Shown: positions 14,245 through 35,936, numbered from the stretch's first letter. The stretch is DNA of 64,000 bases from Bacteroidota bacterium (GCA_023429135.1 JAEYWD010000115.1:74471-138470), one strand, 5' to 3'. The notes: generated by a model not told the origin, from the sequence alone. Translations and numbers: made by a program.

Positions 14245-14246
14245 AA

Positions 14247-15194: not shown

Positions 15195-17117
15195 CTAAAA
15201 GCTTTCAAAAAGTTTATCATCCTTCTCTGGACTTGACATGTTTACATTTATCCCGTTTGTATGCTCCAACACCGGGAGAGTGAAACGAGAACTATGTACT
15301 GGTTTTTTGGGAGATTTCTGCTGCTTTTGCAACCCGGATGTTTTTAACTTCCTACCCGTGTTAAAGAAGCTAATGGTTTCCTTAAGTAATTCTGCCTGAC
15401 CGGCAAGTTCTTCGGAGCTGGAGCTCATTTCTTCGGCAGCCGCAGCATTCTGTTGTGTAACCTGTGTAAACTGAATTACTGCCTTGGTTATTTGTTCCGA
15501 TCCGGCACGTTGTTCATTGCTCGATGCAGCTATTTCCTTTACAAGTTGTGCTGTTTTTTGTATCTCCGGAATAATTTTCATCATCATGTTTCCTGAGTCT
15601 TCCGTCACTTTCAGACTCGATGCCGAGAGCTCGTTAATTTCCACAGCCGCTTTCTGACTTACTTCAGCAAGTTTTCTTACTTCGGCAGCCACAACGGCAA
15701 AGCCTTTGCCCTGTTCTCCTGCGCGTGCTGCTTCAATGGCGGCATTAATGGCCAGAATATCGGTTTTGCCGGCAATGTCGTTTATAATTCTAATTTTTTC
15801 CGAGATCTGCCTGATGGCCTCCAGGCTCTTTTGTGCTGCGGTATTTACTTCCATCATACCTTGAGCCGAAGCTACGGCAATTTTCTCGGTAGCAATGGAG
15901 TTGTCGCTGTTCTGCTGAATTGATGATGTCATTTCTTCTATCGACGACGACACCTCTTCGGCCGATGCCGATTGCTCGTTGGCTCCCTCGGAAATCTGAA
16001 CTGCCGAGGTACTCATTTCACTACTGCTGATGGCTACATTTTCAGCGGCATCCATCACCTGACCCACAATTTCGCTCAAACGCGTTACCATGTTGGAAAG
16101 TGCTCCCATAAGTTCATCGTTTTCGGAGCGTTTTGCAAGGGTAATCGTTAAATCGCCCTGAGCCACCATTTTTGCTTTGGTGATAATTTCGTTGAATGAT
16201 TTGATTAAACTGTTCAGATTCTGTTTGATGTTGTCGAAATCACCATTGTAATTTTCGGTAATTAGTTCGGGCATATCTCCTTTTGCAATTCTGTCGACAT
16301 ATTCGGCAGCCACATTCAAGGGGGTAATTACAGCATCGAGCGTTTGGTTTATTCCAACCACAATGGCCCGGAATTCAGCATTTGTTTCTTCAGTATTGGC
16401 TCTTACAGTTAGCTTTCCGGCAATTGCCGCATCGATCAGATTTTTTGTTTGGTCTATTACCGATTTTATTATTTTCTGAATATTTGAGGCAATAAGTAAT
16501 CCTAGCGTTATAGCAACCAGAATTCCTGTGATAATTAAAAATATCATGGTTAAGGAAGTACTGTTTGCAAGTTTTGCGTTGTTTTCCGACATTCTTTTAC
16601 CGGTATCCAGGTTGTATTGAGTGCTTTCGTTGATGGATTTTTGCAGAGCTTCGTTAACTTTAAACCAGTTGCCCCGCATTAACTTGTAGGCATTGGTGTG
16701 GTCGTTCGCATAAAGTAATTTTCTGAATTCAGGGAAGTAAGCCGAATATGAATGATAATTCTTCTCCAAAGCTTCGCAATTAGCATGGTCAGTTTCGTCG
16801 ATAGCAGATTTTTTTAAAGTTGAAATGGTGATTTTAAATTCCTGATCGAGTTTGTCCATTTGTCCCAGGTATTTATCCAATTCCTGACGGTCGTCTGCAA
16901 TATAAGCATCGCGTATTAAAACCCGGATTTGCTGATAATAGGTTGTAACTTCTGTGCAGTGACCTAAGGATACAGCAACCGACTCGTATAATGTCGTATC
17001 GGCTTTTTTCATCTTATTCAGACTTAGAATAGAGTATAGCCCTATAACCCCGGCAATCAGGGCTACCAGTATAAAACTCATAAGGAGCTTTGTTCTGATT
17101 TTCATTTTGTTTAGCAT
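15195..17117 (-). CDS. Methyl-accepting chemotaxis protein (MCP1)
   Basis: 640 aa. TM1 ([23 protein letters not shown]), a periplasmic helical-bundle-like region, TM2, and one cytoplasmic HAMP-like module. The canonical signalling hairpin reads [37 protein letters not shown]-rich methylation helices; C-terminus LFESF. Confidence 0.95.
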   Translation of the reverse strand: MLNKMKIRTKLLMSFILVALIAGVIGLYSILSLNKMKKADTTLYESVAVSLGHCTEVTTYYQQIRVLIRDAYIADDRQELDKYLGQMDKLDQEFKITISTLKKSAIDETDHANCEALEKNYHSYSAYFPEFRKLLYANDHTNAYKLMRGNWFKVNEALQKSINESTQYNLDTGKRMSENNAKLANSTSLTMIFLIITGILVAITLGLLIASNIQKIIKSVIDQTKNLIDAAIAGKLTVRANTEETNAEFRAIVVGINQTLDAVITPLNVAAEYVDRIAKGDMPELITENYNGDFDNIKQNLNSLIKSFNEIITKAKMVAQGDLTITLAKRSENDELMGALSNMVTRLSEIVGQVMDAAENVAISSSEMSTSAVQISEGANEQSASAEEVSSSIEEMTSSIQQNSDNSIATEKIAVASAQGMMEVNTAAQKSLEAIRQISEKIRIINDIAGKTDILAINAAIEAARAGEQGKGFAVVAAEVRKLAEVSQKAAVEINELSASSLKVTEDSGNMMMKIIPEIQKTAQLVKEIAASSNEQRAGSEQITKAVIQFTQVTQQNAAAAEEMSSSSEELAGQAELLKETISFFNTGRKLKTSGLQKQQKSPKKPVHSSRFTLPVLEHTNGINVNMSSPEKDDKLFESF

Positions 17118-17425
17118 GACTGTGATTTTAGGTTGATTATTGTTAGAATATGATTGTATAAGAGATGAGACGAGCTAAGTCCGTCCCTGCGAAAGGACGA
17201 ATATTTAGTTTAATGAAATATGATCAGCGTTGTACCGGGCGAAGAAATATATTTTCGTTGCTTCGATACAGATTGAAAATGCGAACATATAAACACCGTA
17301 TTTATATGTCGGATATTAATTGAACTTTTTAAAAGATTAATCCGGGCAAAAGGATTTGTGTTCATATCTGATAACGTGGTAATGAAGAATAAATTTAATA
17401 GAAAGGCAGTGTTTATGCACCATGC

Positions 17426-17461
17426 GAACTAACGGTTTTAATCCTCCTAAAGGATGATTTT
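17426..17461 (-). promoter_or_regulatory. Conserved bipartite che-upstream motif, copy A
   Basis: The + strand reads GAACTAACGGTTTTAATCCTCCTAAAGGATGATTTT, about 310 nt upstream of the mcp1 start. It is near-identical to the copies at 38011 and 40570. Confidence 0.5.
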
Positions 17462-17527
17462 ACTTTTCATGCTTTTGGATGATTATTATAGACTTAGGAA
17501 ATGATTTTGCCGGTGCTGATAAGCAAA

Positions 17528-17555
17528 GGAGCTGTCCGTAGTTGTGGACAGCTCC
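17528..17555 (-). terminator. Candidate terminator of mcp2
   Basis: Perfect 10-bp stem GGAGCTGTCC / GGACAGCTCC with an 8-nt loop, 30 nt past the mcp2 stop. The minus-strand downstream sequence is TTTGCTTAT. Confidence 0.55.
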
Positions 17556-17584
17556 GTAATAAGGTTAAAAACTGGTCAGGGTGT

Positions 17585-19507
17585 TTAAAAACTTTCGAAA
17601 AATTTATCTCCTTTGTCGGTACTTCCCATGTTTACATTTATACCTGAGGCTTGATCCGATGCCGGAATATGCATACGTTGATTATGAACTGGTTTTTTGA
17701 GATTCTTCTGTTGCTTCAGCAATGGTGAAGATTTTACCTGCTTGCCTGTATTGAAGAAACCAATGGTTTCCTTCAGTAGCTCTGCCTGGCTGGCAAGCTC
17801 TTCGGAGCTGGAACTCATTTCTTCGGCAGCGGCCGCATTCTGTTGTGTTACCTGAGTAAACTGAATTACAGCCTTGGTGATCTGTTCCGAACCGGCACGC
17901 TGCTCGTTACTCGAAGCCGCAATTTCTTTTACAAGCTGAGCTGTCTTCTGAATTTCCGGTATTATTTTGTTCATCATACTTCCCGATTCTTCGGTCACCC
18001 TAAGGCTCGATGCCGAAAGTTCGTTAATTTCCACTGCCGCTTTCTGGCTTACCTCAGCCAGTTTCCGCACTTCGGCAGCTACAACGGCAAAGCCTTTACC
18101 CTGTTCTCCGGCACGCGCTGCTTCAATGGCTGCATTAATGGCCAGGATGTCGGTTTTGCCAGCTATATCGTTAATTATTTTGATTTTTTCCGATATCTGT
18201 CTTATGGCCTCCAGGCTTTTCTGAGCGGCTGTATTAACATCAATCATTCCCTGAGCTGAGGTCACCGCAATTTTCTCGGTAGTAATTGAGTTGTCGCTGT
18301 TTTGCTGGATGGTTGAAGCCATTTCTTCTATTGACGACGACACTTCTTCGGCTGATGCCGACTGCTCGTTTGCTCCTTCCGAAATTTGAACTGCAGAGGT
18401 GCTCATTTCATTACTGCTGATGGCTACATTTTCAGCGGCATCCATCACCTGCCCTACAATTTCGCTTAACCGGGCTACCATGTTGGAAAGCGCTCCCATC
18501 AATTCGTCGTTTTCCGAACGTTTGGCAAGGGTAATCGTGAGATCGCCCTGAGCCACCATTTTGGCTTTGGTGATTATTTCGTTAAACGAAATAATAAGAC
18601 TATTGAGGTTATTCTTTAGATTGTTAAAGTCGCCGTTGTAATTATCGGTAATAAGTTCGGGCATATCGCCCTTAGCTATTTTATCAACATAGTTGACGGC
18701 AACATTTAGCGGAGTGATAACTGCATCGAGGGTTTGGTTGATGCCCACCACAATTTCGCGAAACTCAACATTTGTTTCTTCGGCGTTGGCCCTGGTGGTG
18801 AGTTTGCCGGCAACCGCTGAATCAATAAGATTTTTGGTTTGCCCGATAACCGATTTGATAATTTTCTGAATGTTGGCTGAAATTACAAGCCCCAACGTTA
18901 TGGCCAGTATTATTCCGATAACAATCATTACAGTCATCGAAAGGGTTGCCGCAAGTGCCAGGCTCGTATTGTCATCAGATATTTTTTTGCCCGAATCGAC
19001 ATTGTATTGCACAATAAGATCGGTGGCATTCTGCATGGCTTCGTTCGCGTTAAACCAGTCGCCTCTCATAAGCTTGCGGGCATTGTCGTGGTCTTTTGCT
19101 GCAAGAAGCTTCCTGAATTCGGGGAGATATTGGTTGTAATCCGAGCGCGCTTTTTCGAGGGCTTCGATGTTTTTCTTATCGGTTTCGTCCAGAACTGTAG
19201 CCTTTAGCTTTTGTAGGTTTTCAAGAAATGCCTTATCAATATCCTCTATTCTTTTCAGATATGTTTCTGCTTCATTAATACTCTCGGCCATATACGCATC
19301 GCGTATGTTCACCCTTATTCTCTGGAAATTGGTTGCCAGTTCGGTGCAATAACTTAACGATACCGCTACATTTTCATAAAGGTTGGTGTCTGCTTTTTCG
19401 AGTTGGTTCAGGCTGCGTATGGAAAAGATACCGATTACACCTGCGATTAAAGCTACTAAGATGAAACCGGAAAGCAACTTGGTTCTTATTTTTAATCTGT
19501 TAAACAT
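17585..19507 (-). CDS. Methyl-accepting chemotaxis protein (MCP2)
   Basis: 640 aa paralog of MCP1 with the same architecture. The signalling domain is nearly identical at protein level. C-terminus FFESF. It starts 13 nt after the cheW1 stop. Confidence 0.95.
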
Positions 19508-19520
19508 ATTAATGGTTTTA

Positions 19521-19985
19521 TTAGTTAATAGAATTTTCTTTAATTGAACTTAGTTCGGCGTTTGAGAATACCTTTTCTACATTAAGGAGCATAGTAAAAT
19601 GTTTGCCTGTTTTAAAAATACCCTGGAGAAAGTCGGTGTTGAAATTGCTGCTCATGAGGGGCAAGGGCTTGATTTCCTCATCATTCAGCGATATTACATC
19701 TTCAACTTTATCTACAATAGCTCCTAACCTGAAAATGTTTTTGTCGCCGGAAACATCAATAACAATAATGTTGTAGGATGGAGAATCGCTTTTGGTATAA
19801 TTGAAGCGAACTCGGGTGTCGAAAACAGGAAGAACTTCTCCGCGGAAATTAATTATTCCGCTTATAAAAGCCGGAGCATTTGGAACAGGAGTGATATGCC
19901 CGTTTTGCAGTACCTCCAGCACTTTGTTCACATTTACAGCGAAGTTTTCGCCGCAAATGGTAAATGATAAATAGGTGCGAATCAT
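19521..19985 (-). CDS. cheW: Chemotaxis coupling protein CheW (copy 1)
   Basis: 154 aa single CheW-like domain ([45 protein letters not shown]). Confidence 0.9.
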
Positions 19986-21110: not shown

Positions 21111-21599
21111 AGAATTATTTCTTCCATTCCAACCTCTTTTTAATTTATTCGGGCTGTATACGTAGCTATTGGGAAAAGATAAGTGTGAAATATACTCGTA
21201 TTTTTTTAGTAAGCAATTTTCAGAAATGTGGTTTGGGAATGATAAGTTACTTCAGGAATGATTTTGATTTTTAACTGAATTTTAATTTCATTGGAATTTG
21301 TGAAGTTAAGGTACTCAGGGCTTTTTTTCTTCCGTACAACGATTAGTTTTTACTAAAAATTTATAATTTAGCTCCTGACTGGCAGAACATAATTATACAA
21401 TTCCAGATAGAAGATTCAGATTTACCCGGGAGCCAAAGAGATTTATTGTATAATCCGTTTTTGCAAAAGCGAAGTAAAAATTGTACTTGAATCGTTAATA
21501 AATTAACATGCCTGCAACTCACTTTTTCCAATGTGCGCGTTCTCCCGATGCCGGGCACACTTCCAATTATCCGGTGCTTTGCTATTCAGAAAAATCCCT

Positions 21600-21878
21600 G
21601 GATACATTTTACACATGCAAAACGCTTCCTGGCTCCGGCCAGCCTGCAAATTACACGTGCAAAATACATGCTGGCGCTGGCCACCCCCATATTGAACAAT
21701 GCAAAACCTGCCTGGCTGCAGCCAGAATCAGATTTACCCGTGCAAAATGCTACCTGGCTGCAGCCAGATCGTTATTTACACGTGTAAAATGGCACCTGGC
21801 TTTAGCCAGCTTGGTATTGCACCGTGTAATTTCATCCTGGCTGCAGCCAGCATGGTATTGCACCTCGAGATTTGTATA
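21600..21878. repeat. Tandem array of about 6.5 units of a 41-42-bp repeat carrying two alternating 14-bp palindromes
   Basis: CTGGCTGCAGCCAG-type palindromes sit at 21629, 21671, 21712, 21754, 21796 and 21837 (spacings 42, 41, 42, 42, 41). TTACACGTGCAAAA-type elements lie midway between them; the best copy is TTTACACGTGTAAA at 21775-21788. A degenerate copy lies further left, near 21414. Confidence 0.85.
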
Positions 21879-22002
21879 AAAACCCTTTAAAACCAATAAA
21901 ATGTAATGCCTTTCATCAGGAATTTAACATCATGCTGCCGGGCGGCAGGGTCTTAAGCTCCTGATAACTTTCGAATATTTTAACTCCTAATTTTTTTTAA
22001 TT

Positions 22003-22752: not shown

Positions 22753-22758
22753 GTAAAG

Positions 22759-22782
22759 CGTTGTGCAAGCCCGGGCACAACG
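22759..22782 (+). terminator. Hairpin immediately after the hypothetical gene
   Basis: 8-bp stem CGTTGTGC (22759-22766) pairs with GCACAACG (22775-22782) around an 8-nt loop. No clear T-run follows. Confidence 0.35.
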
Positions 22783-23033
22783 CCCTAAATACAACAACCT
22801 CTACAAGGTTCTGGAAATCATTAGTCTCATTTAACCACAAATATGCAACCTCTACAAGGTTATTTTTGCCTTTTACACAAGCTCTGTAGTCCGACGAAGG
22901 GGAAATATATTTTTAATTCTGTTATTGTTGTCAATGTGATAAAACTCGTGTTTTTTACCACACACTCATAAAAAAACAGGAAATATTTCGTTGATGTTTG
23001 TTATTATAAATAAGTTTAGGACATGAATTTACT

Positions 23034-23041
23034 TATATTTG
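23034..23041 (+). promoter_or_regulatory. Candidate Bacteroidota -7 box upstream of kaiC
   Basis: TATATTTG matches TAnnTTTG and lies 67 nt upstream of the kaiC ATG. Confidence 0.35.
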
Positions 23042-23107
23042 TTTGTGAGACGATAAAAATGTAACCCGGAATGAAGTACATGCTTCCGTATTTTTTCTGA
23101 ATATATT

Positions 23108-24796
23108 ATGAATATAACCCGAAACAAACTACTTAAAGCTCCCACGGGAATACCCGGATTTGATGAAATTACCGGAGGAGGATTGCCGCAGGGCCGACCA
23201 ACCCTTGTATGTGGTGATGCCGGCTGCGGGAAAACACTTTTTTCCATGGAATTTCTTGTGCGTGGAGCTATGGAATTCAACGAACCAGGAGTATTTATGG
23301 CTTTTGAGGAAACTGAACAGGAACTTACAACCAACGTTTCTTCGCTTGGCTACGATCTCAACGATTTGGTTGCACGCAAATTATTGCTGCTCGACCATGT
23401 TCATGTTGAACGCAGCGAGATTGAAGAAACCGGCGAATACGACCTCGAAGGACTTTTTATCCGCCTTAATTTGGCAATAGACTCCATAAATGCAAAAAGA
23501 GTGGTACTGGATACCATTGAGTCTCTTTTTGCAGGTCTACCCAACGAGGCAATTCTGCGTGCCGAATTACGCCGTTTGTTCAGATGGCTTAAGGATAAGG
23601 GAGTTACCGTAATTATTACAGGCGAAAGAGGGAACGGAACCTACACACGCCATGGCCTCGAAGAGTATGTTTCCGATTGCGTAATCGTACTGGATCATCG
23701 TGTAACCAATCAAAGTTCTACCCGCAGGCTGCGGGTTGTTAAATACCGCGGATCAGCCCATGGTACCAACGAATATCCTTTCCTTATCGACAATACGGGT
23801 TTCTCAGTCCTTCCTATAACTTCGCTGGGTCTCGATCATCAGGTATCGTCCGAAAGAATTTCTTCCGGAATACCCGAGCTTGATGAAATGATGGGAGGCG
23901 AAGGATATTATGTTGGAAGCAGTGTTCTGGCTTCAGGTACCGCAGGTACCGGCAAAAGCAGCCTGGCTGCCCATCTGGTTCATGCCACATGTTCCCGGGG
24001 CGAAAAGGTTGTTTACTTTTCATTTGAAGAGTCTCCCAAACAAATTATGCGGAATATGCTTACAATCGGAATTGATATGGAGCCGTTTGTATCGGGAGGC
24101 CTGTTAAAATTTCATTCCACAAGACCTACTTTTTTTGGATTGGAGATGCACCTTACCGCAATGTATAAGGAAATACGCGATTTTAAGCCGTCGGTTGTAG
24201 TTGTGGATCCATTGAACAGTTTTGTTACTGGCGATAATGAGCTTGAAGCTAAGTCAGTTTCGATGCGACTGATCGATTATCTGAAAATGAATAAAATTAC
24301 AGGATTCTTTACAAGTCTTACCGCTGGAGGAAGTAACCTGGAAAGTACGGATATTTTCGTGTCATCATTAATCGATACCTGGATTCTTTTGCGCGATATA
24401 GAATCTGGAGGCGAGCGTAACCGTGGTATATACATTCTTAAATCGCGGGGTATGGCTCATTCGAACCAGATACGTGAGTTTATAGTTTCCAACAAAGGCA
24501 TTAAACTCGAGGATGTTTATGTAGGAATGGAAGGCGTGCTCACCGGTAGTGCCCGTATAGCCCAGGAATCGAGGGATGCTGCCGAGCATGAACTTTTGCA
24601 GCAGGAAATTGAACAGAAAAAATTTGTACTGGACCGGAAGCGACAGGCACTTTTGGCACAAATAGAATCCATGAAAACTGAATTTGAAGCTGAAGAATCG
24701 GAAATATTAAAAGGTATTGAATCAGAAAACAAGCAACTCGAGCGTTTTCATGAAAACAGAAAGCGAATGGCTCAAAGCCGCGGTGGTGAAAAATAA
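23108..24796 (+). CDS. kaiC: Circadian-clock-type ATPase/autokinase KaiC homolog with C-terminal extension
   Basis: 562 aa with duplicated RecA/KaiC domains. Walker A motifs GDAGCGKT and GTAGTGKS. Catalytic EE pairs MAFEE and [17 protein letters not shown] aligns by eye with cyanobacterial HISTITDTIILL. Also [16 protein letters not shown]. The tail is charged and heptad-like. Confidence 0.93.
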
Positions 24797-24807
24797 AAAT
24801 TTGTACA

Positions 24808-25128
24808 ATGATAAATCAAGATGACTTTAACGATAATCTAACTGAAGATGCCTGGATATTGAGGTTATATGTGGCAGGACAAACTCCCAAATGTTTACTT
24901 GCCTTTGCAAATTTGAAGAAGATTTGCGAAACTCAATTAAAAGGTAAATATAAAATAGAAGTGATTGACCTTCTTGTAAATCCTCAACTCAGCAAGGACG
25001 ATCAGATTCTTGCTATTCCTACACTGGTTCGAAAGTTACCCGTTCCCGTCAGGAAAATAATTGGAGATCTTTCGAATACCGAAAAGGTATTGGTGGGTTT
25101 GGACCTTATGCACAATAGAAATAATTAA
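24808..25128 (+). CDS. kaiB: KaiB (copy 1)
   Basis: 106 aa. Motifs [75 protein letters not shown]. Confidence 0.93.
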
Positions 25129-25132
25129 AAGT

Positions 25133-25474
25133 ATGGATGAATCGGTAACACCTCGGTTTTCGACTGATGACTTTGAAGACCCGGCTAGAAAAACAGATGG
25201 TGAAAAATTTATACTCCGGCTGTATGTTACCGGCTCTACACCTCAATCTATCAGGGCTATAGGAAATATTCAAAAGATTTGCGAAGAAAACCTTCCCGGA
25301 AATTATAACCTGGAGGTTATTAATTTATACGAAAACCCCGAAATGGCTAAAACCGAACAAATAATAGCAGCGCCTACCCTCGTTAAACAATTGCCTTTGC
25401 CTTTGCGGCGTATTATTGGCGATCTTTCCGATTCTGAAAAGGTTTTGGTGGGTCTCGGCCTCAGGGTTATGTAA
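25133..25474 (+). CDS. kaiB: KaiB (copy 2)
   Basis: 113 aa from the ATG at 25133. Motifs LRLYVTGSTPQSIRAIGNIQKICE, LEVINLYENPEMAKTEQIIAAPTLVKQLPLPLRRIIGDLSDSEKVLVGLGL. The listed longer ORF start (25061) overlaps kaiB1. Confidence 0.9.
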   Translation: MDESVTPRFSTDDFEDPARKTDGEKFILRLYVTGSTPQSIRAIGNIQKICEENLPGNYNLEVINLYENPEMAKTEQIIAAPTLVKQLPLPLRRIIGDLSDSEKVLVGLGLRVM

Positions 25475-25489
25475 CATAAAAAATTAAGT

Positions 25490-26782
25490 ATGCCGGAATC
25501 TATCCAGCAAGATGTTTTGCTCGAAAACGAACAATTGAAGGCCCGTCTGGCCGAAACAGAAGCCACACTCGAAGCCATAAGGAACGGGGAGGTGGACGCT
25601 ATTGTCGTTTCGGGAAAGGACGGAGATAAAATATTTACACTTACCTCAGCCGAAACTCCATACCGTATTATTATCGAAGAAATGGAGGAAGGAGCCGTTA
25701 CCGTATCCGACGAGGGCATTATTCTTTTCTGTAACCGCAGGTTCTCGCAAATGATTGGTCAGCCAATGAGTCAGATCATTGGAAAGAGATATGTTGAGTT
25801 TCTCGAAATATGCGAGCATGAAAAATTTGGTATTATGCTCCGCGAAGCCATCAACGGAAGAATAAAAGATGAAATTACCCGATTGGATAAATATGGCGAG
25901 TTGTTTTACTTTCATATTTCTATGTGTGCCCTTCCTGAAGGTATGCTTGGTAAAGCTTGTATTATTGTAACCGATATCACCGAATTAAAAAAACACCAGC
26001 AAAATCTCGAATCCCTCGTAATGGAACGAACTGCCGAAATTAATAAGGCAAATCTTGAGCTGGGTGAATTGAATTCTACTAAGGATAAGTTGTTTTCTAT
26101 TATTGCGCACGATTTGCGGGGGCCGTTTACAAGCTTACTTGGGTTCACCGATCTGCTAATCGAAAATCTGGATAAATACGATCGTCAAAAATTCGAACAA
26201 ATTGTAATGCATATAAGCAAGGCTGCTAAAAATGCTTTCTCGTTGCTCGAAAATCTTTTATTGTGGGCCCGGTCGCAAAACAATCAAATGCTATTTACAC
26301 CCCGAACAACCAACTTGTTTAATGTTACCCGTGATGTTATTCTTAGCTTAACATCACTTGGTTCTATTAAAAATATCAGGATGATTAACAAGGTTCCCGG
26401 AGAATTAAAAGCTTATGCCGATATAAATATGCTAACTGCTATTCTCAGGAATCTGATATCGAATGCAATAAAGTTCAGTAATTCTGGCGGTGAGGTCGAA
26501 ATTGAAGCTCTTTCAACCGGGTATGCAGTTGAAATTTCGATTAAAGACAATGGCATAGGAATGAACGAAGAAATTAGAAACAGTCTGTTTCAAACCATAA
26601 GCAATAATACACGTGCAGGTACGGCAAATGAAAAAGGTACCGGACTTGGATTGATGATTTGTAAGGAGTTTATCGACAAACATCATGGGAAAATCTGGCT
26701 GGAGAGCGAAGTTGGCAAAGGAACCAAATTTACTTTCAGTCTGCCTTTTACAGTCACTTCGACAAGCTCAGTGACCGACTAG
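25490..26782 (+). CDS. PAS-domain sensor histidine kinase (Kai-associated output-kinase candidate)
   Basis: 430 aa. N-terminal coiled coil, a PAS region (GAVTVSDEGIILFCNRRFSQMIG ... VTDITELK), HisKA H-box FSIIAHDLRGPFTSLLGF, and HATPase boxes ISNAIKFS, DNGIGM, GTGLGLMICK. It starts 15 nt after kaiB2. Confidence 0.9.
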   Translation: MPESIQQDVLLENEQLKARLAETEATLEAIRNGEVDAIVVSGKDGDKIFTLTSAETPYRIIIEEMEEGAVTVSDEGIILFCNRRFSQMIGQPMSQIIGKRYVEFLEICEHEKFGIMLREAINGRIKDEITRLDKYGELFYFHISMCALPEGMLGKACIIVTDITELKKHQQNLESLVMERTAEINKANLELGELNSTKDKLFSIIAHDLRGPFTSLLGFTDLLIENLDKYDRQKFEQIVMHISKAAKNAFSLLENLLLWARSQNNQMLFTPRTTNLFNVTRDVILSLTSLGSIKNIRMINKVPGELKAYADINMLTAILRNLISNAIKFSNSGGEVEIEALSTGYAVEISIKDNGIGMNEEIRNSLFQTISNNTRAGTANEKGTGLGLMICKEFIDKHHGKIWLESEVGKGTKFTFSLPFTVTSTSSVTD

Positions 26783-27249
26783 AGGCTCAGTGACCGAAAC
26801 GTGGTCGTTAAGCTTGTCGAAACGTAAAATTGAAGAAAACACTATTGCCCGTTAGAATATTGGTTCCATTATCGCAATAAAATGGTGGTTCTATTTGTAA
26901 ACCGGAACCAGCACCGGGTATAAGCTTTTTAAGAGGTATAATAATAACTGATAATTGGGCTCTATGTTCGATTGAGGCGTTGGAGTTATAAATTATTCAG
27001 TCTTTAATATCACCATAATTTTATCCCGACTGTTTATTTTATTGAATTAGGCACATGATGAATAGAAATGGTTTTCAATAAACCCAGAGGGTTTAAATGT
27101 TTATAGCTAATTAGAGGAAGAAATATTCGACCCCGGCTGGGGGCGCACTAAAATCCTACTCTCATGTTTCTATAAACATTTGATACCTCCGGTATCATTC
27201 AGCATTAATTAAGAGCCAAATTCAATTATTTTATTAAAAGGCTATTTTA

Positions 27250-27963
27250 ATGACTGCATTCTCCGAACCGGCACAATTCAGATTATTAAAGTTTTGCTCC
27301 TGGTTTATGTTCAATAATAACACCAAGGATGCAATCAAAATCTTTAAAAACGATCTGGCAAAAATTTCGTCGCTTGATGCATTAAAGGTATTCACCTGGA
27401 TGGCGCAAAGCGATTATAACATTCAAACAGTTTCAAATAAAATTGATAAGCTTACAAGTATTTTTTTCAAACCTCTGAAAAATGATTTGAAACCTTTTCC
27501 CAGCAAACATTTTCTGATTTCTTATCATTACGAAAATTTTGTTTTGCTGAAACGGATGGAGGAAATGAGGCCAAAGTTGAGAGAGATATTAAAGAACCAT
27601 GATCCCTCCATGTTATCCGAATTTCAGAAGTTTGCGGATACTTTGAAGAATCATGTCATGCAATTTCAAAGGTTGGAGGTTCATGTTTTCCCGCTTTTTG
27701 AAAGAGTACTTCCGCAATATGGTGCATTTTATCGTTTCGAAAGGATGTTTCACAACGATTTTAAGCAAATGTTAAGGGATATTGAATACTTGTTTACCAT
27801 ACAGCCATTTAATTATGCGAATTTTAACCAGTTGGTAGGATGTTTGTATTTTCGTCTAAGTTTAAGGCTTTATCGCGAAAATCTCATTCTTTTTCCGGTG
27901 GGCTGTCAGTTTATTCATTCCAGATTTTACCAGTTAACCTTCGTAAAGGAGTATTTTGAATGA
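27250..27963 (+). CDS. Hypothetical helical protein (weak hemerythrin/DUF438-like resemblance)
   Basis: 237 aa. His/Glu-containing helical motifs (HVMQFQRLEVHVFPLFERV, FERMFHNDFKQM) resemble the HHE-type H..xE..lFP pattern. The assignment is tentative. Confidence 0.45.
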   Translation: MTAFSEPAQFRLLKFCSWFMFNNNTKDAIKIFKNDLAKISSLDALKVFTWMAQSDYNIQTVSNKIDKLTSIFFKPLKNDLKPFPSKHFLISYHYENFVLLKRMEEMRPKLREILKNHDPSMLSEFQKFADTLKNHVMQFQRLEVHVFPLFERVLPQYGAFYRFERMFHNDFKQMLRDIEYLFTIQPFNYANFNQLVGCLYFRLSLRLYRENLILFPVGCQFIHSRFYQLTFVKEYFE

Positions 27964-28132: not shown

Positions 28133-31039
28133 TTAGAAACTTTCGAACAAGTTATCGCTCTGCCCCATTTTGTCCATTTCTATGTTGATGCCGGAAGTTT
28201 TTCCTGTATGTTTATCGTCTTTTGCCGCAAACCCTTGCCTTTTTGCGGATTTATGAGCAGGCTTAACAGGTTGGGACATGTTAAGTTTCCGGCCGGTATT
28301 GAAGAAACTGATGGTTTCTTTTAACTGTTCGGCCTGGCTGGCCAGTTCTTCGGAGCTGGAACTCATCTCTTCAGCCGCAGCCGCATTTTGCTGTGTTACC
28401 TGAGTGAATTGAATAACGGCTTTCGTTATCTGTTCCGATCCAAGGCGTTGCTCATTGCTCGAGGCTGCAATTTCCTTTACCAGTTCGGCCGTTTTTTGAA
28501 TTTCGGGAATTATTTTTTGCATCATGTCACCCGATTCTTCCGTCGTTTTTAAACTGGACGCTGATAACTCGTTAATTTCAACAGCAGCTTTCTGGCTTAC
28601 TTCGGCAAGTTTGCGCACCTCGGCTGCAACTACGGCAAAACCTTTGCCCTGTTCGCCCGCCCGGGCTGCTTCAATAGCTGCATTAATAGCCAGAATGTCC
28701 GTTTTACCGGCAATATCGTTAATGATTTTAATTTTTTCCGATATCTGTTTCATGGCATCCAGGCTTCTTTTAACTGATATATTAAAATCCAGCATGCTTT
28801 TGGCCGATTCAATAGCAATTTTTTCAGTGATAGCAGAATTGTCGCTGTTCTGCTGAATTGTCGATGCCATCTCTTCTATTGACGACGAAACTTCCTCTGC
28901 CGAAGCCGATTGCTCGCTGGCTCCTTCCGAAATCTGGATGGAGGATCGGCTCATTTCGTTACTGCTGATGGCTACATTTTCGGCAGCTTCCATTACCTGA
29001 CCAACAATTTCGCTTAAGCGCGAAACCATATCGGAAAGAGCACCCATTAAATCGTCATTTTCTGAGCGTCGGGCCAGGGTAACAGTAAGGTCTCCCTGTG
29101 CAATCATCTTGGCTTTTGTTATTATTTCGTTAAAAGCATGGATAAGGCTGTTGAGATTATTTTTAATATTATTGAAATCGCCGTTGTAGTTGTCGGTGAT
29201 GAGCTGAGGCATGTCGCCTTTCGAAATTCTTTCGACATAAAGGGCGGCAACGTTTAATGGTCCAATAACGGCATCGAGCGTGCTGTTAACACCTTCAACA
29301 ATTTTACGGTAATCTCCCAGATGCCTTTCTGCATTGGCTCTGGTTTCCAGGCGGCCTTCCAAAGCGGCTTTTACAAGCATGTTTGCATCGTCCGAGAGCC
29401 TATTAATGGCTGCTACCGAAACATTTACAGCATGATTTATCGTGTCGAACATTTTTTGCGCTTCCAAAGTATCGTTGTCGGCCTCTTCGGTTTTAAGGTC
29501 AAACATCAGGTCGCCTTTGGAAAGGCTTGTTAAACCTTCAGTTAGCTTTACAGCTTCATTGGTCTGATATTTTTCAATTTTTTCGGCTTTCCTCATCGCT
29601 AGCTTTATGGCTGTTTGATCGCTCACTACCTCAAAGGCTCCGATAACACTACCCTCTTTGTTTCGGAGTGGAACAGCAGAATACTGAATTTCAAGTTCCA
29701 GATTCCCGGGACGTGCTACAGTTTCGCTTTTTTGGTTGGCATTGGTTTGTATAGATTTGGCGCAGGCACAGTTTTGGGTTTTGCAGTCACCTGTTCTGAA
29801 GTGATCGTAACATTTGGTTCCTATTAATTGGTGCTGTATTTTATTGCCTACCTGGGCGCCTATATGGTTGATGTAATTTATTTCGAAATTATTGTTGATA
29901 AGCATTGCTGGTGTTGGCATTGCGTCCAGTAGGCCAACAAGAGTGTTGAGGGTGTCGTTTACTCCATCAACAATTTTTTTGAAATCGCCCGAATGCCTTT
30001 CTGCATTGGCGCGAGTATGAAGTTTTCCTTCAATGGCAGCACTACTGAGCATGTTTGCATCACTAATAAGCATTTTAACAGCCTCGATGCATTTGTTGAG
30101 GCTGTTTTTTATTTCGTTGAAATCGCCATTGTAATTGTCAGTAATTTTATCGGGGATATCACCGTTCGAAATTCGGTCGACATATTCGGCTGCCACATTT
30201 AATGGCTCAATTACAGCATCCAGAGTTTTGTTGAATCCGGAAATAATTTCCCGGAACTCCTCGTTTGTTTCCTCAATTTTTGCCCTTGTTGATAACTTCC
30301 CTTCGAGTGCTGCTTCTGTCAGTTTTTTGGTTTGTGCAATGATGGATTGTATTATTTTCTGAATGTTCGCTGAAATAAATATTCCGGATAGGATGGCTAT
30401 GATCAGTCCTGCAATTATCGTCAGAATTATAAAGCTTTGAGATGAAGTTCCTGAGGATACGGTTTCATCTACCATTTTACCGGTGTTCTTGATGTTGTTG
30501 GATTTTAGCAGCTCAAAAGTTTCACCCATTGTATTTGAAATTGGTACCATTAGGGCGTAAGTCGCTTCATATTCCGATTTGAGTGTTTGAAGGGAATTAC
30601 TATCTGCAGTGGTCATTTGAGCAATTAACTGGTCAAGAGTGATGTAGATATTACGCCAATCTTTGTATTCTGCTCGTATTTTGGCCTGAAGTCTCAATCC
30701 TTCGGCGCTCTGACGGGGAATGGATTCGGATAATTTCCAAAATTTGTCTACTTTTTCCCAGGAAGCAAGTCTTTTTTGTTGAATGTTTTGAAGTTCCTTT
30801 CTGAATTGCTGGATGTCTTTCTGGTTAAAGGCAAGCATTACCTCAAGCGTTTGCGAACGGATAACCATTCGTTCTTCATTGATCCCTGAAAATGCTTCCA
30901 TGGATGGGATTCGGTTGTCGCGGATGTTTAAAGTGCTGTTGTTTTGGTTTTTAATTGAGTAATAGCCAATAAGACCGATTATGCCAGCAATTATTGCTGT
31001 TACAGTAAAACCGGTCATTATTTTTGTTCTGATTTTCAT
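28133..31039 (-). CDS. Methyl-accepting chemotaxis protein with extended multi-module cytoplasmic region and Cys-rich PAS-like insert (MCP3)
   Basis: 968 aa. TM1, periplasmic helical region, TM2, then repeated HAMP-like modules flanking a PAS-like domain with [17 protein letters not shown]. The signalling domain is the same as in MCP1/2. C-terminus LFESF. Confidence 0.93.
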
Positions 31040-31115
31040 TTTTATTTTTGTTTACATTTTTGTTAACGGATACTCTGTTGAGAATTGCAGGACAGTTTTG
31101 GGCTGTTGAGCCGTT

Positions 31116-31155
31116 AAACCAGCTCGGGGTAACTGCTGTTGCCCCAGGCTGGTTT
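31116..31155 (-). terminator. Imperfect long hairpin between mcp4 and mcp3 (terminator/attenuator or processing site candidate)
   Basis: AAACCAGCTCGGGGTAAC pairs with GTTGCCCCAGGCTGGTTT, about 15 of 18 positions paired around loop TGCT. No T-run follows on the minus strand. Confidence 0.3.
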
Positions 31156-31204
31156 GGATGTGGTAGGAACAGAATTCTCTATTCCTGATCGCCTCTTTCG
31201 AAGT

Positions 31205-34072
31205 TTAGAAGTTTTCGAACATTTTGTCGTCCTTGTCTATACCATTGAGGTCGACATTAACTCCCACGGCATGATCGGTCTGCCGGGCAGTTTTCCCCTG
31301 CAAACTTCCTCTTTTGCCTGCTTTGTGAGTAGGCTTCATCGGTTGGGTTATTTTGATCTGCCGTCCGGTGTTGAAGAAACTGATGGTTTCCTTCAGCAAC
31401 TCGGCCTGGCTTGCCAGTTCTTCGGAACTGGAGCTCATTTCCTCTGCTGCTGCTGCATTTTGCTGGGTTACCTGTGTAAACTGAATCACAGCTTTTGTGA
31501 TCTGTTCCGAACCCATTCTTTGCTCGTTGCTCGATGCTGCAATTTCCTTCACCAATTGAGCCGTCTTCTGGATTTCGGGAATTATCTTCATCATCATGCT
31601 TCCCGACTCCTCGGTAACGCGCAGACTTGAAGCCGACAATTCGTTAATTTCAACCGCTGCTTTTTGGCTTACTTCTGCAAGCTTACGCACTTCGGCAGCT
31701 ACCACCGCAAAGCCTTTGCCCTGTTCGCCGGCACGCGCTGCTTCAATTGCTGCATTAATGGCAAGAATGTCAGTTTTTCCGGCAATGTCGTTGATGATTT
31801 TGATTTTTTCCGATATCTGACGCATGGCTTCAAGGCTTTTTTGGGCAGCGGTGTTTACATCCATCATTCCCTGAGCCGAAGCAACAGCAATCTTTTCGGT
31901 CGTAATGGAGTTGTCGCTGTTCTGCTGGATTGTGGACGACATTTCCTCAATTGATGAGGATACTTCTTCTGCCGATGCCGATTGCTCGCTTGCACCTTCC
32001 GAGATCTGAACTGCCGAGGTGCTCATTTCGTTACTACTGGTAGCTACATTCTGAGCGGCTTCCATTACCTGGCTAACAATTTCGCTCAATCGGGCAACCA
32101 TTTCGGAGAGTGCTCCCATTAACTCATCATTTTCTGAACGCTTGGCAAGGGTAATGGTTAAGTCCCCCTGAGCCACCATTTTGGCTTTGGTTATTATTTC
32201 GTTGAAAGCATTGATGAGGCTGTTAAGATTATTTTTGATGCTGTTAAAGTCGCCGTTGTAATTGTCGGTTATCAAATCCGGCATATCACCTTTGGCTATT
32301 TTATCCACATACATGGCGGCCACGTTCAATGGACCAATTACTGCATCTAGCGTATTATTCACTCCTTCAACAATTTTGCGGAAATCGCCCTGATGACGCG
32401 AAGCATCTGCGCGGGTAGCGAGCTTCCCTTCTACGGCAGCGTTAGAGAGGAGGGTTGCATCGCTGACAAGTTCACTCACAGCTTCCTTAACTTGTTGTAA
32501 GCTGTTGTTAATTCTTTCGAACTGTTTCTTTACTTCCTGGGTATGTTCATCGGCCTCTCTGATGTTGAGGTTGAATTCCAGACTTCCTTTTGAAAGATGC
32601 CTGAGGTTGCCTTCTATTCTTTCAACCTCAGATTTTGTATAATCACTTACTCTGATTATTGATGTTAAATCGGTTACAACTTCAACAAAGCCGGTATTCT
32701 CGCCTTTTGCATTTTTTAGGTAAGCGGTATCCTGTTTACAACTCATTCCACACCAATCGAAGAAACTTTGATTAGTACCTTTTAATAATTGCTTTATTCC
32801 GCAATTTGCTGTGTTGCATATATTTGCTCCGGCATTACTGCATGCTTTTCCATAACCCGATTCACGGTCTTTTATAACGCCCTGATCAATCATCAGCCTC
32901 TCAAATTCTTTATTCATGTAGGTCCACGTCATATTTTCGTCGGTTACATGAATCGGGAATGGGACAGCATCAATGATGGATTCGTACCACACAGTTTTAT
33001 CTACAACCGTATCCAGGGTGGCATTAACTCCTTCTACAGTTTTACGAAATTCACCCTGATGATTCTGGGCATTGGCTCTGGTAGAGAATTTACCCTCTAT
33101 TGCTGCATTGGAAAGCATCTTGGAGTCTGTAACAAGTAGGTTTATAGCATCGATACACTGATTGAGGTTGCTCTTTATCTCATTGAAGTCGCCATTGTAA
33201 TTGTCGGTGATTTTCTCGGGTATGTTACCTTTGGAAATGCGGTCCACGTATTCGGCAGCTACATTGAGGGGCCCAATAACGGCATCGAGGGTCTTATTGA
33301 TACCTACCACAATTTCGCGGAATTCTTCGTTGGTGTCCTCGGTTTTGGCGCGCGTGGCAAGACGACCTGCTACGGCAGCATCAACCAGATCTTTGGTTTG
33401 TTTAATAACCGATTTGATGATGTTCTGAATGTTGGTGGCAATAATGAAACCGAGCACTATAGCTGCTAGCAGCGAAAGCGCCACCAAAGCAATCATGAAC
33501 GTTGTTGCGTTATCTGCTAAAGCTGTGTTTCCATCGGAAGTTTCTTTGGCCAGGGTTAGCTTACTTTGCTGCAGCTCATCCAGAGCTTTCTGGCAAACAT
33601 CATTATCCGATTTCATTTTGCCGTTCATAATCATTACCGCGCCATTAATGTTGTCATCCTTCAACATTTTTTTGATGTCAGGTACCGAAGACACGTAAGC
33701 GTCAAAAGATTCGTTCACTTTTTTAACAATTTCTTTACCTGCTTCAGTCAGCGTTGTTGCTTCTACCTTTGCTTCCGAATTTCGGAAAGTTTTGCTCAGC
33801 TCTTCAATCCGGGCCAGTTTTGCTTCACGATCTTCGTTATTTGTGGCATAAACGGCATCGCGCACATTTACTCTTACTCGCTGAAACGAAGTGGACATGT
33901 CCATCATATCGGCCATTGGTACTGTAATTTTTTCGTATAATTTTTTATCGGCAGCATCCAGTTGTTTTATTCTGGAAATGCCCATGTAACCTATTACACC
34001 TGCCAATGAAGCCACTAATAGAAAGCTTACCAGTAATTTTGTGCGAATTTTCATGTTTTTAACCCAGTTCAT
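31205..34072 (-). CDS. Methyl-accepting chemotaxis protein with extended multi-module cytoplasmic region and Cys-rich PAS-like insert (MCP4)
   Basis: 955 aa with the same layout as MCP3. The insert carries CSNAGANICNTANCGIKQ...FFDWCGMSCKQD. C-terminus MFENF. Confidence 0.93.
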   Translation of the reverse strand: MNWVKNMKIRTKLLVSFLLVASLAGVIGYMGISRIKQLDAADKKLYEKITVPMADMMDMSTSFQRVRVNVRDAVYATNNEDREAKLARIEELSKTFRNSEAKVEATTLTEAGKEIVKKVNESFDAYVSSVPDIKKMLKDDNINGAVMIMNGKMKSDNDVCQKALDELQQSKLTLAKETSDGNTALADNATTFMIALVALSLLAAIVLGFIIATNIQNIIKSVIKQTKDLVDAAVAGRLATRAKTEDTNEEFREIVVGINKTLDAVIGPLNVAAEYVDRISKGNIPEKITDNYNGDFNEIKSNLNQCIDAINLLVTDSKMLSNAAIEGKFSTRANAQNHQGEFRKTVEGVNATLDTVVDKTVWYESIIDAVPFPIHVTDENMTWTYMNKEFERLMIDQGVIKDRESGYGKACSNAGANICNTANCGIKQLLKGTNQSFFDWCGMSCKQDTAYLKNAKGENTGFVEVVTDLTSIIRVSDYTKSEVERIEGNLRHLSKGSLEFNLNIREADEHTQEVKKQFERINNSLQQVKEAVSELVSDATLLSNAAVEGKLATRADASRHQGDFRKIVEGVNNTLDAVIGPLNVAAMYVDKIAKGDMPDLITDNYNGDFNSIKNNLNSLINAFNEIITKAKMVAQGDLTITLAKRSENDELMGALSEMVARLSEIVSQVMEAAQNVATSSNEMSTSAVQISEGASEQSASAEEVSSSIEEMSSTIQQNSDNSITTEKIAVASAQGMMDVNTAAQKSLEAMRQISEKIKIINDIAGKTDILAINAAIEAARAGEQGKGFAVVAAEVRKLAEVSQKAAVEINELSASSLRVTEESGSMMMKIIPEIQKTAQLVKEIAASSNEQRMGSEQITKAVIQFTQVTQQNAAAAEEMSSSSEELASQAELLKETISFFNTGRQIKITQPMKPTHKAGKRGSLQGKTARQTDHAVGVNVDLNGIDKDDKMFENF

Positions 34073-34163
34073 AATTTTTCTTTTAATAATTATACTTTAT
34101 AATTCCCTTCTTCACTTTGCTCTTGTTCCGGTTAACATTTTAAATTCTTAGGCATAACGAGTT

Positions 34164-34754
34164 TTAAATACTTGTGATTCTTTCGCTTTTCATAAGCTCA
34201 AAATTTCTGTCGTTAAAGCATAACATGGCCCCATGACCAGGATAAATTGAATTTATTTTCCTTTTTTTCAAACGTGTCAATGCTTTCTCGTTTTCGGCGA
34301 AAAGAGTAGCATTAGTTTGAGAAATTGGAAATGATGTGTCTCCTGAGAAAAGAATTCCTTCTTTCTCATTGTACAGACAAATTGAATCGTAACTATGATA
34401 GGTGATATGGAAAACTTCAAATTGCTGGTCACCTATCTTCAATATTTCACCATCGTGTAAAACATGATCTACATGTTTCAGGTGAGAATTGAATGCATAA
34501 ATTTTTGGATGATAGGCTAGTTTTATTTCCTGTAGAATTGCTGCATGGTCCGAATGGCTGTGTGTTAATATCACCTGATCGATTTTATTTTTACCAAGGC
34601 CTGTATTAATACACTCGATTTTGCGGATAATGTTTATGTCACTGCCTACATCGATAAGTGTATTAAGATCATCCATGGCATTCCATGTTCCCATGACCAG
34701 AAAAACGTTGGCTGTGTAAAGATTGCTGTTGTGGGTAAGGTTGGCGATTTTCAT
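34164..34754 (-). CDS. MBL-fold metallo-hydrolase
   Basis: 196 aa with the metallo-beta-lactamase signature ILTHSHSDHAA, a downstream His/Asp (FSGDT) and PGHG. It lies between cheR and mcp4 on the same strand. Confidence 0.85.
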   Translation of the reverse strand: MKIANLTHNSNLYTANVFLVMGTWNAMDDLNTLIDVGSDINIIRKIECINTGLGKNKIDQVILTHSHSDHAAILQEIKLAYHPKIYAFNSHLKHVDHVLHDGEILKIGDQQFEVFHITYHSYDSICLYNEKEGILFSGDTSFPISQTNATLFAENEKALTRLKKRKINSIYPGHGAMLCFNDRNFELMKSERITSI

Positions 34755-34837
34755 CCGATAATAAATTTAAAGGTTGTGGTTTAGCATCACCGCATGTTGA
34801 TTGATGATTTTTAGTTGGGACATGCAGGTGCCTTAAT

Positions 34838-35443: not shown

Positions 35444-35447
35444 TAAA

Positions 35448-35936
35448 TCAGGAATTTGCTAAGGTGCCGTTTAATTCGTTTGTTTCTTTAATCGTTTTCA
35501 GTTCGGTACCTGAGAATACACGTTCTACATTGAGCAGCATAATAAATTCATTGCCGAGTTTGTAAATTCCGTGCAGAAAATCGGTATTAAACTCTTTGCT
35601 CATAGCTGGTACGGGTTTAATATCAGCATCTTCGATGGATATCACGTCTTTCACTTTGTCTACAACAGCTCCCAAACGGAACATGTCCACTCCTTCCGAA
35701 ACATCGAGAACGATGATATTGTACGATTCGTCATCGTTTCTTTCGGGTAAGTTAAAACGCACACGTGTTTCGAAAACTGGTACTACATCGCCCCGGAAAT
35801 TGATAATGCCACGGATATAAGTCGGGGCGTTGGGAACAGGGGTAATGTGTTCTTCCTGCAATACTTCCAGTACTTTGGCTACATTTACAGCGTAATGGTC
35901 ACCGCAAATGGTAAACGATAGATAAGTTCTGATCAT
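35448..35936 (-). CDS. cheW: Chemotaxis coupling protein CheW (copy 2)
   Basis: 162 aa paralog of CheW1 ([35 protein letters not shown]). Confidence 0.9.
   Translation of the reverse strand: MIRTYLSFTICGDHYAVNVAKVLEVLQEEHITPVPNAPTYIRGIINFRGDVVPVFETRVRFNLPERNDDESYNIIVLDVSEGVDMFRLGAVVDKVKDVISIEDADIKPVPAMSKEFNTDFLHGIYKLGNEFIMLLNVERVFSGTELKTIKETNELNGTLANS

Follow-up and report, generated by a model that had tools for sequence, protein, structure and literature searches.

A kaiC-kaiB-kaiB-kinase operon in a Bacteroidota bacterium

Systems composed of KaiC and KaiB but lacking KaiA are known outside the cyanobacteria (PMC10076222, PMC5520375). We analyzed a locus of this kind in a 64,000-nucleotide stretch of DNA from a Bacteroidota bacterium (GCA_023429135.1, JAEYWD010000115.1:74471-138470; this whole stretch is hereafter called the window). 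An earlier note, made from the sequence alone, had described there an operon of kaiC, two kaiB genes and a PAS kinase gene, and had pointed to the existence of such KaiA-less systems. The list of open reading frames (ORFs) and the raw sequence both confirm that the four genes are co-directional and separated by gaps of 11, 4 and 15 nt (Table 1). The locus is therefore a tight, co-directional cluster that includes a PAS-containing signaling gene, the arrangement that defines a kaiC-kaiB-PAS/HK (histidine kinase) operon. A scan for terminator-like sites found none between the four genes on the + strand. The start of kaiB-2 was taken at the ATG, although the mechanical ORF extends upstream of it to a TTG within kaiB-1. 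The KaiA family gave no match among the six neighboring ORFs that were scanned against Pfam, and for these ORFs the absence of a KaiA-like gene claimed in the earlier note holds.

Table 1. Features of the kai operon and of the region preceding it. Positions are counted from the first nucleotide of the window; KaiC_RS is the KaiC protein of Rhodobacter sphaeroides.
Feature	Position	Strand	Description
Intergenic region 5' of kaiC	22753-23107	+	355-nt gap after a DUF6261 gene; presumed operon promoter region
kaiC	23108-24796	+	562 aa; double-domain KaiC of KaiC2 / KaiC_RS type by sequence
S419/S420 codons	24362-24367	+	Predicted autophosphorylation sites, aligned with S413/S414 of KaiC_RS
KaiC C-terminal extension, residues 490-562	24575-24793	+	Predicted helix joining two hexamers tail to tail
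kaiB-1	24808-25128	+	106 aa
kaiB-2	25133-25474	+	113 aa; ATG start at 25133
Soluble sensor histidine kinase gene	25490-26782	+	430 aa; leader helix, PAS, HisKA, HATPase_c
Kinase leader-plus-PAS module, residues 1-178	25490-26023	+	Part kept beside kaiB genes across phyla

KaiC and its C-terminal extension

The first gene of the operon matches the Pfam KaiC model in two stretches (355 bits) and the NCBIfam model PRK09302 at 731 bits, well over the cut-off of 408. Against the cyanobacterial model TIGR02655 (circ_KaiC) the protein reaches 360.9, under the model's cut-off of 546.25; with this score, and with KaiA unmatched in the neighboring ORFs, the system does not classify as a circadian KaiC1-type or KaiABC oscillator. 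Both Walker A motifs (G36DAGCGKT and G277TAGTGKS) and both catalytic EE pairs (67/68 and 307/308) reported in the earlier note are in place. Residues 10-562 align with R. sphaeroides KaiC (8DBA_A) at 669 bits (E = 3e-200). Other solved KaiC proteins score about 350-370 bits, and the alignments to the cyanobacterial ones (about 350 bits) end near residue 487. Identity to KaiC_RS is 54% overall, 65% in CI, 52% in CII and 26% in the tail, the last being aligned without gaps.

The phosphosite segment V-S419-S420-L-I-D falls column for column on L-S413-S414-L-M-D of KaiC_RS, for which a S413E/S414E mutant structure is available (PDB 8FWI). The two serines had been assigned by eye in the earlier note, and the alignment to KaiC_RS shows that assignment to be right. 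S419, S420 and T414, the last being the counterpart of cyanobacterial T426, are unchanged across 22 homologs. A Ser-Ser pair in CII is the pattern of KaiC2 proteins (PMC5520375, PMC10076222), a large clade of which was described by Pitsawong et al. 2023 as having these sites together with a C-terminal extension of about 50 aa (PMC10076222).

An extension of this kind is present in the window KaiC, which continues for 73 aa beyond position 489 (residues 490-562). Residues 486-550 include no proline and a single glycine, and the tail aligns gap-free with the coiled-coil tail of KaiC_RS in 8DBA, the hydrophobic core positions being kept in character. We collected 119 homologs that are 68-100% identical to the window KaiC. 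All 119 carry between 71 and 105 residues past position 489, and positions 501, 508, 515, 519, 522, 526, 537 and 554 are hydrophobic in 97-100% of them (position 534 in 92%). These conserved positions stand at heptad-like spacings. Homology to the KaiC_RS tail and the near-invariant hydrophobic positions thus bear out the extension beyond the CII core that had been noticed earlier, and it satisfies the KaiC2 description of roughly 50 aa or more homologous to the coiled-coil tail. From these sequence features, the window KaiC is assigned to the KaiC2 clade with a C-terminal coiled-coil extension, which supplies the clade placement (KaiC2 / KaiC_RS type) that the earlier note had proposed to establish.

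In KaiC_RS, the tail forms a 12-helix bundle that links two hexamers (PMC10076222). The tail of the window KaiC is likewise predicted to be an inter-hexamer helix, through which the protein would oligomerize. A Fourier test for a 3.5-residue hydrophobicity periodicity of the tail was not significant, either for the single sequence or for the family profile (p ~0.3-0.4). The same test fails likewise on the experimentally proven coil of KaiC_RS; because this positive control fails too, we regard the test as uninformative and give it no weight.

The function that the earlier note attached to the coil, namely support of KaiA-independent autophosphorylation, does not agree with what is reported for KaiC_RS. 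Deletion of the coil leaves autophosphorylation almost unaltered and nucleotide exchange nearly normal, and it is an extended, exposed A loop that drives phosphorylation independently of KaiA (PMC10076222). The coil provides dodecamer assembly, stability and an allosteric route to dephosphorylation (PMC10076222).

The nearest relatives of the window KaiC are found in metagenome-assembled genomes (MAGs) of Bacteroidales and Prolixibacteraceae. As a separate observation, one NCBI protein (P0001; 954 aa, on a 12-kb contig) contains a complete KaiC (residues 9-568), after which the stretch that corresponds to residues 182-560 of the window KaiC is repeated. The repeated part covers CII and the tail, and P0001 has three Walker A motifs; the fusion may be genuine or an artifact of assembly.

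The two KaiB proteins

Both kaiB genes are full-length, as had been stated earlier, since each matches almost the whole Pfam KaiB model (PF07689, positions 1-81 of 82), with 88.1 bits for kaiB-1 and 87.3 bits for kaiB-2. Against NCBIfam NF006798 (cut-off 110), kaiB-1 passes with 115.6 and kaiB-2 falls just below with 101. The match between 8FWJ_M and kaiB-1 scores 109.7 bits.

The two KaiB proteins of the window are 49.5% identical, and pairs within other loci range from 37.5% to 56.7%, typically about 48%. When loci are compared with each other, mean identity is 65.5% among first (position-1) KaiBs and 50.7% among second (position-2) KaiBs, versus 47.2% between the two positions. The nearest kin lies in the protein's own position group for all 38 position-1 KaiBs and for 34 of the 38 position-2 KaiBs. 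A neighbor-joining (NJ) tree splits the two groups in the same way, and nearly all single KaiBs, including R. sphaeroides KaiB (KaiB_RS), fall within the position-1 group. KaiB-2 has the larger mean distance (0.80 vs 0.46 for KaiB-1). Its ORF is nevertheless intact in 38 loci, and 19 columns are invariant in 42 sequences. The groups differ by conservative substitutions (W/Y, A/T, F/I, I/L, L/Y, D/E, R/K, K/R), and both retain the signature PTL...LP.P.R.IIGDLS as well as the glycine equivalent to Synechococcus elongatus G88. Judged by sequence, kaiB-1 appears to share a paralog group with R. sphaeroides KaiB, the one studied biochemically, and kaiB-2 appears to be an old, conserved and faster-evolving KaiB paralog. 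A recent tandem duplication of kaiB was also considered and is ruled out by the identity and tree data.

Following the AF-Cluster approach, we modeled both proteins in AlphaFold2 from alignments specific to each clade. The models left the two KaiBs undistinguished in fold state: both are ground-state-like, at low confidence (pLDDT, a predicted score for the local distance difference test, of 61.9 and 64.1). The top Foldseek matches of both were crystals of tetrameric ground-state KaiB (template modeling, TM, score 0.6-0.75 over about 88-90 residues), whereas fold-switched KaiB, Legionella KaiB and the N-terminal domain of SasA (SasA-N) match only in the N-terminal half (about 55-60 residues). 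The KaiB-2 model superimposes on SasA-N (6X61) or fold-switched KaiB at a TM of 0.32-0.38, again with low confidence. KaiB_RS, which does switch fold, is likewise predicted as ground state (Wayment-Steele et al.). Neither KaiB would therefore seem to be locked in the thioredoxin-like form, a reading that is weak at such pLDDT values.

Two profile comparisons stand apart from these results. The Legionella KaiB 4KUN, crystallized in a thioredoxin-like form, scores 84.1 bits against the position-2 profile and 66.9 against the position-1 profile, and R. sphaeroides KaiB is near-equal on the two (125.9 and 130.1 bits, respectively). Some bacteria are known to have up to four KaiBs, of which one alone has been studied (Wayment-Steele et al.). 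In the literature that we searched, whose coverage does not extend to subscription journals or figures, paired KaiB paralogs in KaiC2 operons were not described; this is absence of evidence only.

The kinase, its N-terminal module and the layout of related loci

The fourth gene encodes a kinase in which Pfam finds no KaiB domain and identifies PAS_9 (68-165), HisKA (198-264) and HATPase_c (311-421). H207 and the N, G1 and G2 boxes make up a complete catalytic core, which is also the only part matched by NF006800 (residues 176-420). The maximum 19-residue hydropathy is 1.39 and there is no membrane segment, indicating that the protein is soluble. It does not have the N-terminal KaiB-like domain that is fused to the kinase in SasA-type proteins, and on this point, as on the PAS domain, the Pfam matches agree with the earlier note.

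To place this layout in context, one genome per species was scanned, and 80 loci were kept in which KaiC is 59-71% identical to that of the window. They come from Bacteroidota, Ignavibacteriota, Proteobacteria, Acidobacteriota, Verrucomicrobiota, Planctomycetota, Nitrospirota and Chloroflexota, plus an archaeal MAG, and include one from a cultured organism, Mucilaginibacter rivuli (L074). The 74 loci with enough downstream sequence to judge the layout comprise 36 with kaiC-kaiB-kaiB-partner, 18 with kaiC-kaiB-partner, 8 with kaiC-kaiB only and 12 with kaiC alone. The layout of the window is thus the commonest of its clade and no oddity.

The feature shared by the partner genes lies at their N-terminus. 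In the window kinase this region (about residues 6-176) consists of a leader helix, a highly conserved segment, A-I-R-x-G-E-V-D-A, and the PAS domain; the gene directly 3' of kaiB matches it, in register and at its N-terminus, in 54 of the 62 evaluable kaiB-containing loci (E 1e-7 to 1e-51). Elsewhere in these 54 loci the full module was found once only, and other PAS domains there match weakly and in the PAS core only. What follows the module varies: 29 of 45 complete partner proteins carry HATPase_c, 16 a receiver, 5 GGDEF plus EAL and 1 HD, and several Bacteroidales partners consist of the module and about 60 further residues only. In a representative library of 1.84 billion proteins, 287 clusters contain the module at E <= 1e-30; it nearly always lies at the N-terminus, and the proteins range from 174 to 1975 aa in length. 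A search for a close solved structure or a cofactor clue for the module gave none, the best match being 3A0R at 23 bits. The sequence comparisons indicate that the conserved partner is this N-terminal leader-plus-PAS module with interchangeable outputs, not the kinase core.

Short partners of 231-250 aa, without a kinase domain, follow the second kaiB in seven Bacteroidota loci (L007, L008, L011, L014, L022, L036 and L041). Clusters of the kaiC-kaiB-kaiB-partner type with a KaiC 63-67% identical to that of the window were also seen in an archaeal MAG, Candidatus Methanoperedens (L058), and a CPR bacterial MAG, Candidatus Nealsonbacteria (L013); either the cluster moved horizontally as a whole or the contigs were binned wrongly.

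The second KaiB was never found without the module: all 36 two-KaiB loci carry it, compared with 18 of the 26 single-KaiB loci (Fisher p = 4.6e-4). The converse does not apply, given that these 18 loci have the module and no second KaiB. In a KaiC tree (NJ, midpoint-rooted, without support values), the two-KaiB layout is spread throughout, and the single-KaiB and partner-less layouts lie in nested clades. From this pattern, the second KaiB would seem to be an old one that was lost repeatedly. In a mirror-tree comparison across 33 loci, the distances of all four proteins correlate; once KaiC distance is controlled, co-variation with the module is 0.26 for KaiB-2 and 0.42 for KaiB-1. By this weak test, KaiB-2 is no closer to the module than KaiB-1 is, which gives no support to a role for KaiB-2 as an adaptor.

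A proposed KaiA-independent switch and its alternatives

These observations appear to suggest that the four genes form a KaiA-independent KaiBC module of the KaiC2 / R. sphaeroides type, which would most likely act as an energy-state-driven hourglass or switch through the soluble histidine kinase. We give this reading a probability of about 0.6; it makes the hourglass timer or stress switch proposed in the earlier note a reasonable reading of the homology. By extension from KaiC_RS (PMC10076222), two KaiC hexamers would join tail to tail to form a dodecamer, and the exposed A loop would permit fast autophosphorylation when ATP is plentiful, at S420 before S419. Fold-switched KaiB would then bind the CI ring of phosphorylated KaiC and speed ATP hydrolysis, and a falling ATP:ADP ratio would lead to dephosphorylation of KaiC, accelerated by KaiB. 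Gene linkage and the interaction of KaiC with a PAS domain in Pseudomonas are consistent with docking of the leader-plus-PAS module on KaiC or on the KaiC-KaiB complex. The activity of the kinase may thereby follow the state of KaiC, and an unlinked response regulator would therefore follow it as well. Because KaiB-2 is an old conserved paralog with all of the KaiB signature residues, it most likely would also bind the CI ring; we guess, as the likeliest role, that it adjusts when or at what threshold the switch operates, or how fully the ring is occupied, and that it is not an obligatory kinase adaptor.

Several points weigh against this proposal. The tail shares only 26% identity with its KaiC_RS counterpart, and the heptad-periodicity test was not significant. 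The low confidence of the KaiB models (pLDDT 62-64) makes any reading of their fold state weak, and no response regulator lies inside the operon. The dodecamer, the autokinase activity, the binding of KaiB and the contact with the kinase are all things that we infer, and the role given to KaiB-2 is a guess. In addition, Legionella KaiC2 systems have been tied to stress resistance, not timekeeping (PMC5520375), so that it is an assumption that the system measures time in a non-phototrophic Bacteroidota.

The same link to stress resistance bears on the alternative of a pure stress or energy-state switch, in which KaiC, in the role put forward for its Legionella and Pseudomonas homologs, would be a phosphorylation-dependent regulator of the adjacent kinase, the KaiBs would set the balance between on and off, and no interval would be timed. 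KaiC homologs of Pseudomonas also affect stress resistance and bind a kinase PAS domain, the Bacteroidota host shows no sign of phototrophy within the window, and the fusion of the module to many different outputs is typical of general signaling. However, among characterized relatives the R. sphaeroides hourglass is much the closest (669 vs about 350-370 bits), and the Pseudomonas systems have no KaiB whereas two are conserved here. The alternative also overlaps with the hourglass, since an hourglass driven by ATP:ADP is itself an energy-state switch, and the two readings are inseparable by sequence. We consider a switch without any interval timing to be rather unlikely.

The earlier note had further proposed that one KaiB could serve as a detached equivalent of the SasA docking domain. 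In its explicit form, KaiB-2 would be a free-standing counterpart of SasA-N that sits on CI in the thioredoxin-like form and recruits the PAS kinase, leaving KaiB-1 to promote dephosphorylation. Such a division of labor would fit the restriction of KaiB-2 to module-bearing loci (36/36 vs 18/26, p = 4.6e-4), the position of its gene, which always directly adjoins that of the module, its faster evolution, as might be expected of a partner-specific adaptor, the lack of a KaiB-like domain in the kinase itself and the preference of the thioredoxin-like Legionella KaiB for the KaiB-2 profile (84.1 vs 66.9 bits). The partner does not need KaiB-2, however, because 18 loci carry the module with a KaiB-1-type protein alone, as do R. 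sphaeroides and R. palustris. The KaiB-2 model is ground-state-like over about 89 residues (TM 0.6-0.7) and SasA-N-like over only about 55-60, albeit at low confidence; its co-variation with the module is below that of KaiB-1 (0.26 vs 0.42); and the residues that separate the two groups differ conservatively. Moreover, the KaiC homolog of Pseudomonas putida binds the PAS domain of its neighboring kinase directly, in systems without KaiB. With the module present where KaiB-2 is not, a low-confidence model that does not look SasA-like and no excess of co-variation, the proposal finds no support in these data, and we think it improbable.

Least credible, and already contradicted by the paralog analysis, is a redundant and perhaps decaying tandem duplicate with no distinct role: the faster evolution of kaiB-2 (mean distance 0.80 vs 0.46) and its score just under the NF006798 cut-off (101 vs 110) could be taken that way, but the copies are only 49.5% identical here and 37.5-56.7% elsewhere, position-2 copies of different phyla group together, and 38 loci keep an intact ORF, 42 aligned sequences showing 19 invariant columns, as for an old and maintained paralog.

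Within the preferred reading of a KaiA-independent module, a bolder generalization can be offered tentatively, and we incline somewhat against it: the KaiC2 timers of most phyla might be three-protein cores made of KaiC and two non-redundant KaiBs, an ancestral layout of which the studied single-KaiB systems, such as the two-protein KaiBC of R. sphaeroides, would be reduced derivatives. If this is true, KaiB-2 could form mixed CI rings with KaiB-1, gate the docking of the leader-plus-PAS module, or add a delay or a second threshold. In cyanobacteria, a delay or threshold of this sort is the part of KaiA.

Upstream region and genomic neighborhood

The region between the DUF6261 gene and kaiC is presumed to hold the promoter of the operon. 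Promoter and terminator scans gave counts at chance level; the promoter scan used a sigma-70 model, probably the wrong one for Bacteroidota. Two features are possible regulator or promoter sites. A perfect 16-nt direct repeat, CAACCTCTACAAGGTT, occurs at 22795-22810 and 22846-22861, 51 nt apart, and TATATTTG lies at 23034-23041, 67 nt ahead of the kaiC start. We take the latter to resemble the Bacteroidetes -7 box, presumably TAnnTTTG.

Further upstream, five tandem units of about 42 nt, each with the palindrome CTGGCTGCAGCCAG, occupy 21628-21873 between ZIP-like and DUF6261 genes. A 123-aa ORF (21508-21879) that is called as a gene on the source contig lies over these units and is probably spurious. 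Downstream, the kinase gene and a weak hemerythrin-like ORF (27250-27963) are separated by 467 nt, and this gap contains a 30-nt inverted repeat (27077-27106 and 27170-27199) that is 77% complementary, with arms 63 nt apart; each arm also holds a short hairpin followed by AATGTTTATA.

The kai operon sits within a chemotaxis neighborhood (15195-19985 and 28133-40422). This includes five methyl-accepting proteins with repeated HAMP domains (15195-17117, 17585-19507, 28133-31039, 31205-34072 and 38191-40422), a CheW (19521-19985) and a CheA-like kinase (35956-38007). A SusC/SusD pair is located at 55358-60772; this pair and the identity of the nearest KaiC relatives mark the window, part of a 190-kb metagenomic contig, as Bacteroidota. 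Across the 80 related loci, the chemotaxis, DUF6261, ZIP-like and hemerythrin-like genes are not conserved beside kaiC.

Response regulators were seen near kaiC in other arrangements. A LuxR-type regulator (REC-GerE) adjoins kaiC in loci without a PAS partner (Ignavibacteria-type loci such as L016, L018, L025, L033, L038 and L039), and a REC-GerE gene lies just upstream of kaiC in a Prolixibacteraceae locus (L003, 738-5498). The window has a REC-PAS-HATPase gene and a REC-GerE gene at 12802-14903, 8 kb upstream of kaiC, the REC-GerE gene occupying 14247-14903. The two REC-GerE proteins are only 35% identical, so a link to the orphan kinase should be taken as a lead and no more.

Comparison with known systems

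The general form of this locus has precedents. The kaiC-kaiB-PAS/HK operon, KaiA independence and occurrence in Bacteroidetes are all already in the literature: such operons were described in Rhodopseudomonas palustris and R. sphaeroides (Ma et al. 2016, PMC4794148), kaiC-kaiB clusters outside cyanobacteria were found to be followed almost always by a kinase or GGDEF/EAL gene (De Luca et al. 2011, PMC3164672), and Bacteroidetes with KaiB2/KaiC2-type proteins only were reported, KaiC2 carrying Ser-Ser sites (Schmelling et al., PMC5520375). The locus itself therefore adds little, being a further KaiC2-type KaiBC-kinase operon in a phylum already known for them, with a tail that is structurally explained. 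Of wider value is that about half of the sampled relatives carry a second, apparently ancient KaiB paralog, which no studied model system has. KaiB-2 and kinase residues 1-178 provide two defined parts with which to ask how the state of a KaiA-less timer reaches the cell.

The cyanobacterial KaiABC system with SasA and CikA shares homologous KaiC and KaiB and a histidine kinase as presumed output, and there the SasA N-domain, a second KaiB-fold protein, is also placed on the CI ring beside KaiB. The window differs in having no KaiA match, a TIGR02655 score below threshold (361 < 546), Ser-Ser instead of Ser-Thr phosphosites and a long KaiC tail, and in a kinase whose N-terminus is a PAS domain and not KaiB-like. 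Unlike KaiABC, it is not expected to sustain a rhythm of its own.

The Legionella pneumophila KaiBC system (4KUN) and the Pseudomonas KaiC-kinase pairs resemble the window in being KaiA-less and in having KaiC beside a signaling kinase. Legionella KaiB is far more distant (54-64 bits, versus about 108-110 for KaiB_RS) and leans to the KaiB-2 profile, and the Pseudomonas pairs, unlike the window, have no KaiB.

The R. palustris operon (PMC4794148) and what De Luca et al. call the first kaiC context (PMC3164672) have the same order of kaiC, kaiB and a PAS-containing signaling protein; the parts of these texts covered by our search mention one kaiB, and in those parts neither two KaiB groups nor a leader-plus-PAS module is singled out. 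Closest of all is the R. sphaeroides KaiBC hourglass (8DBA, 8FWI, 8FWJ; PMC10076222), as the window KaiC is much nearer KaiC_RS than any other solved KaiC. The two systems share 54% KaiC identity, the Walker A motifs, EE pairs, Ser-Ser sites and C-terminal extension, the absence of KaiA, a KaiB-1 that groups with KaiB_RS and a PAS histidine kinase gene in the operon. They differ in host, a purple alphaproteobacterium as opposed to a Bacteroidota, and in tail sequence (26% identity); and whereas R. sphaeroides has a single KaiB, the window adds a second paralog between kaiB and the kinase gene.

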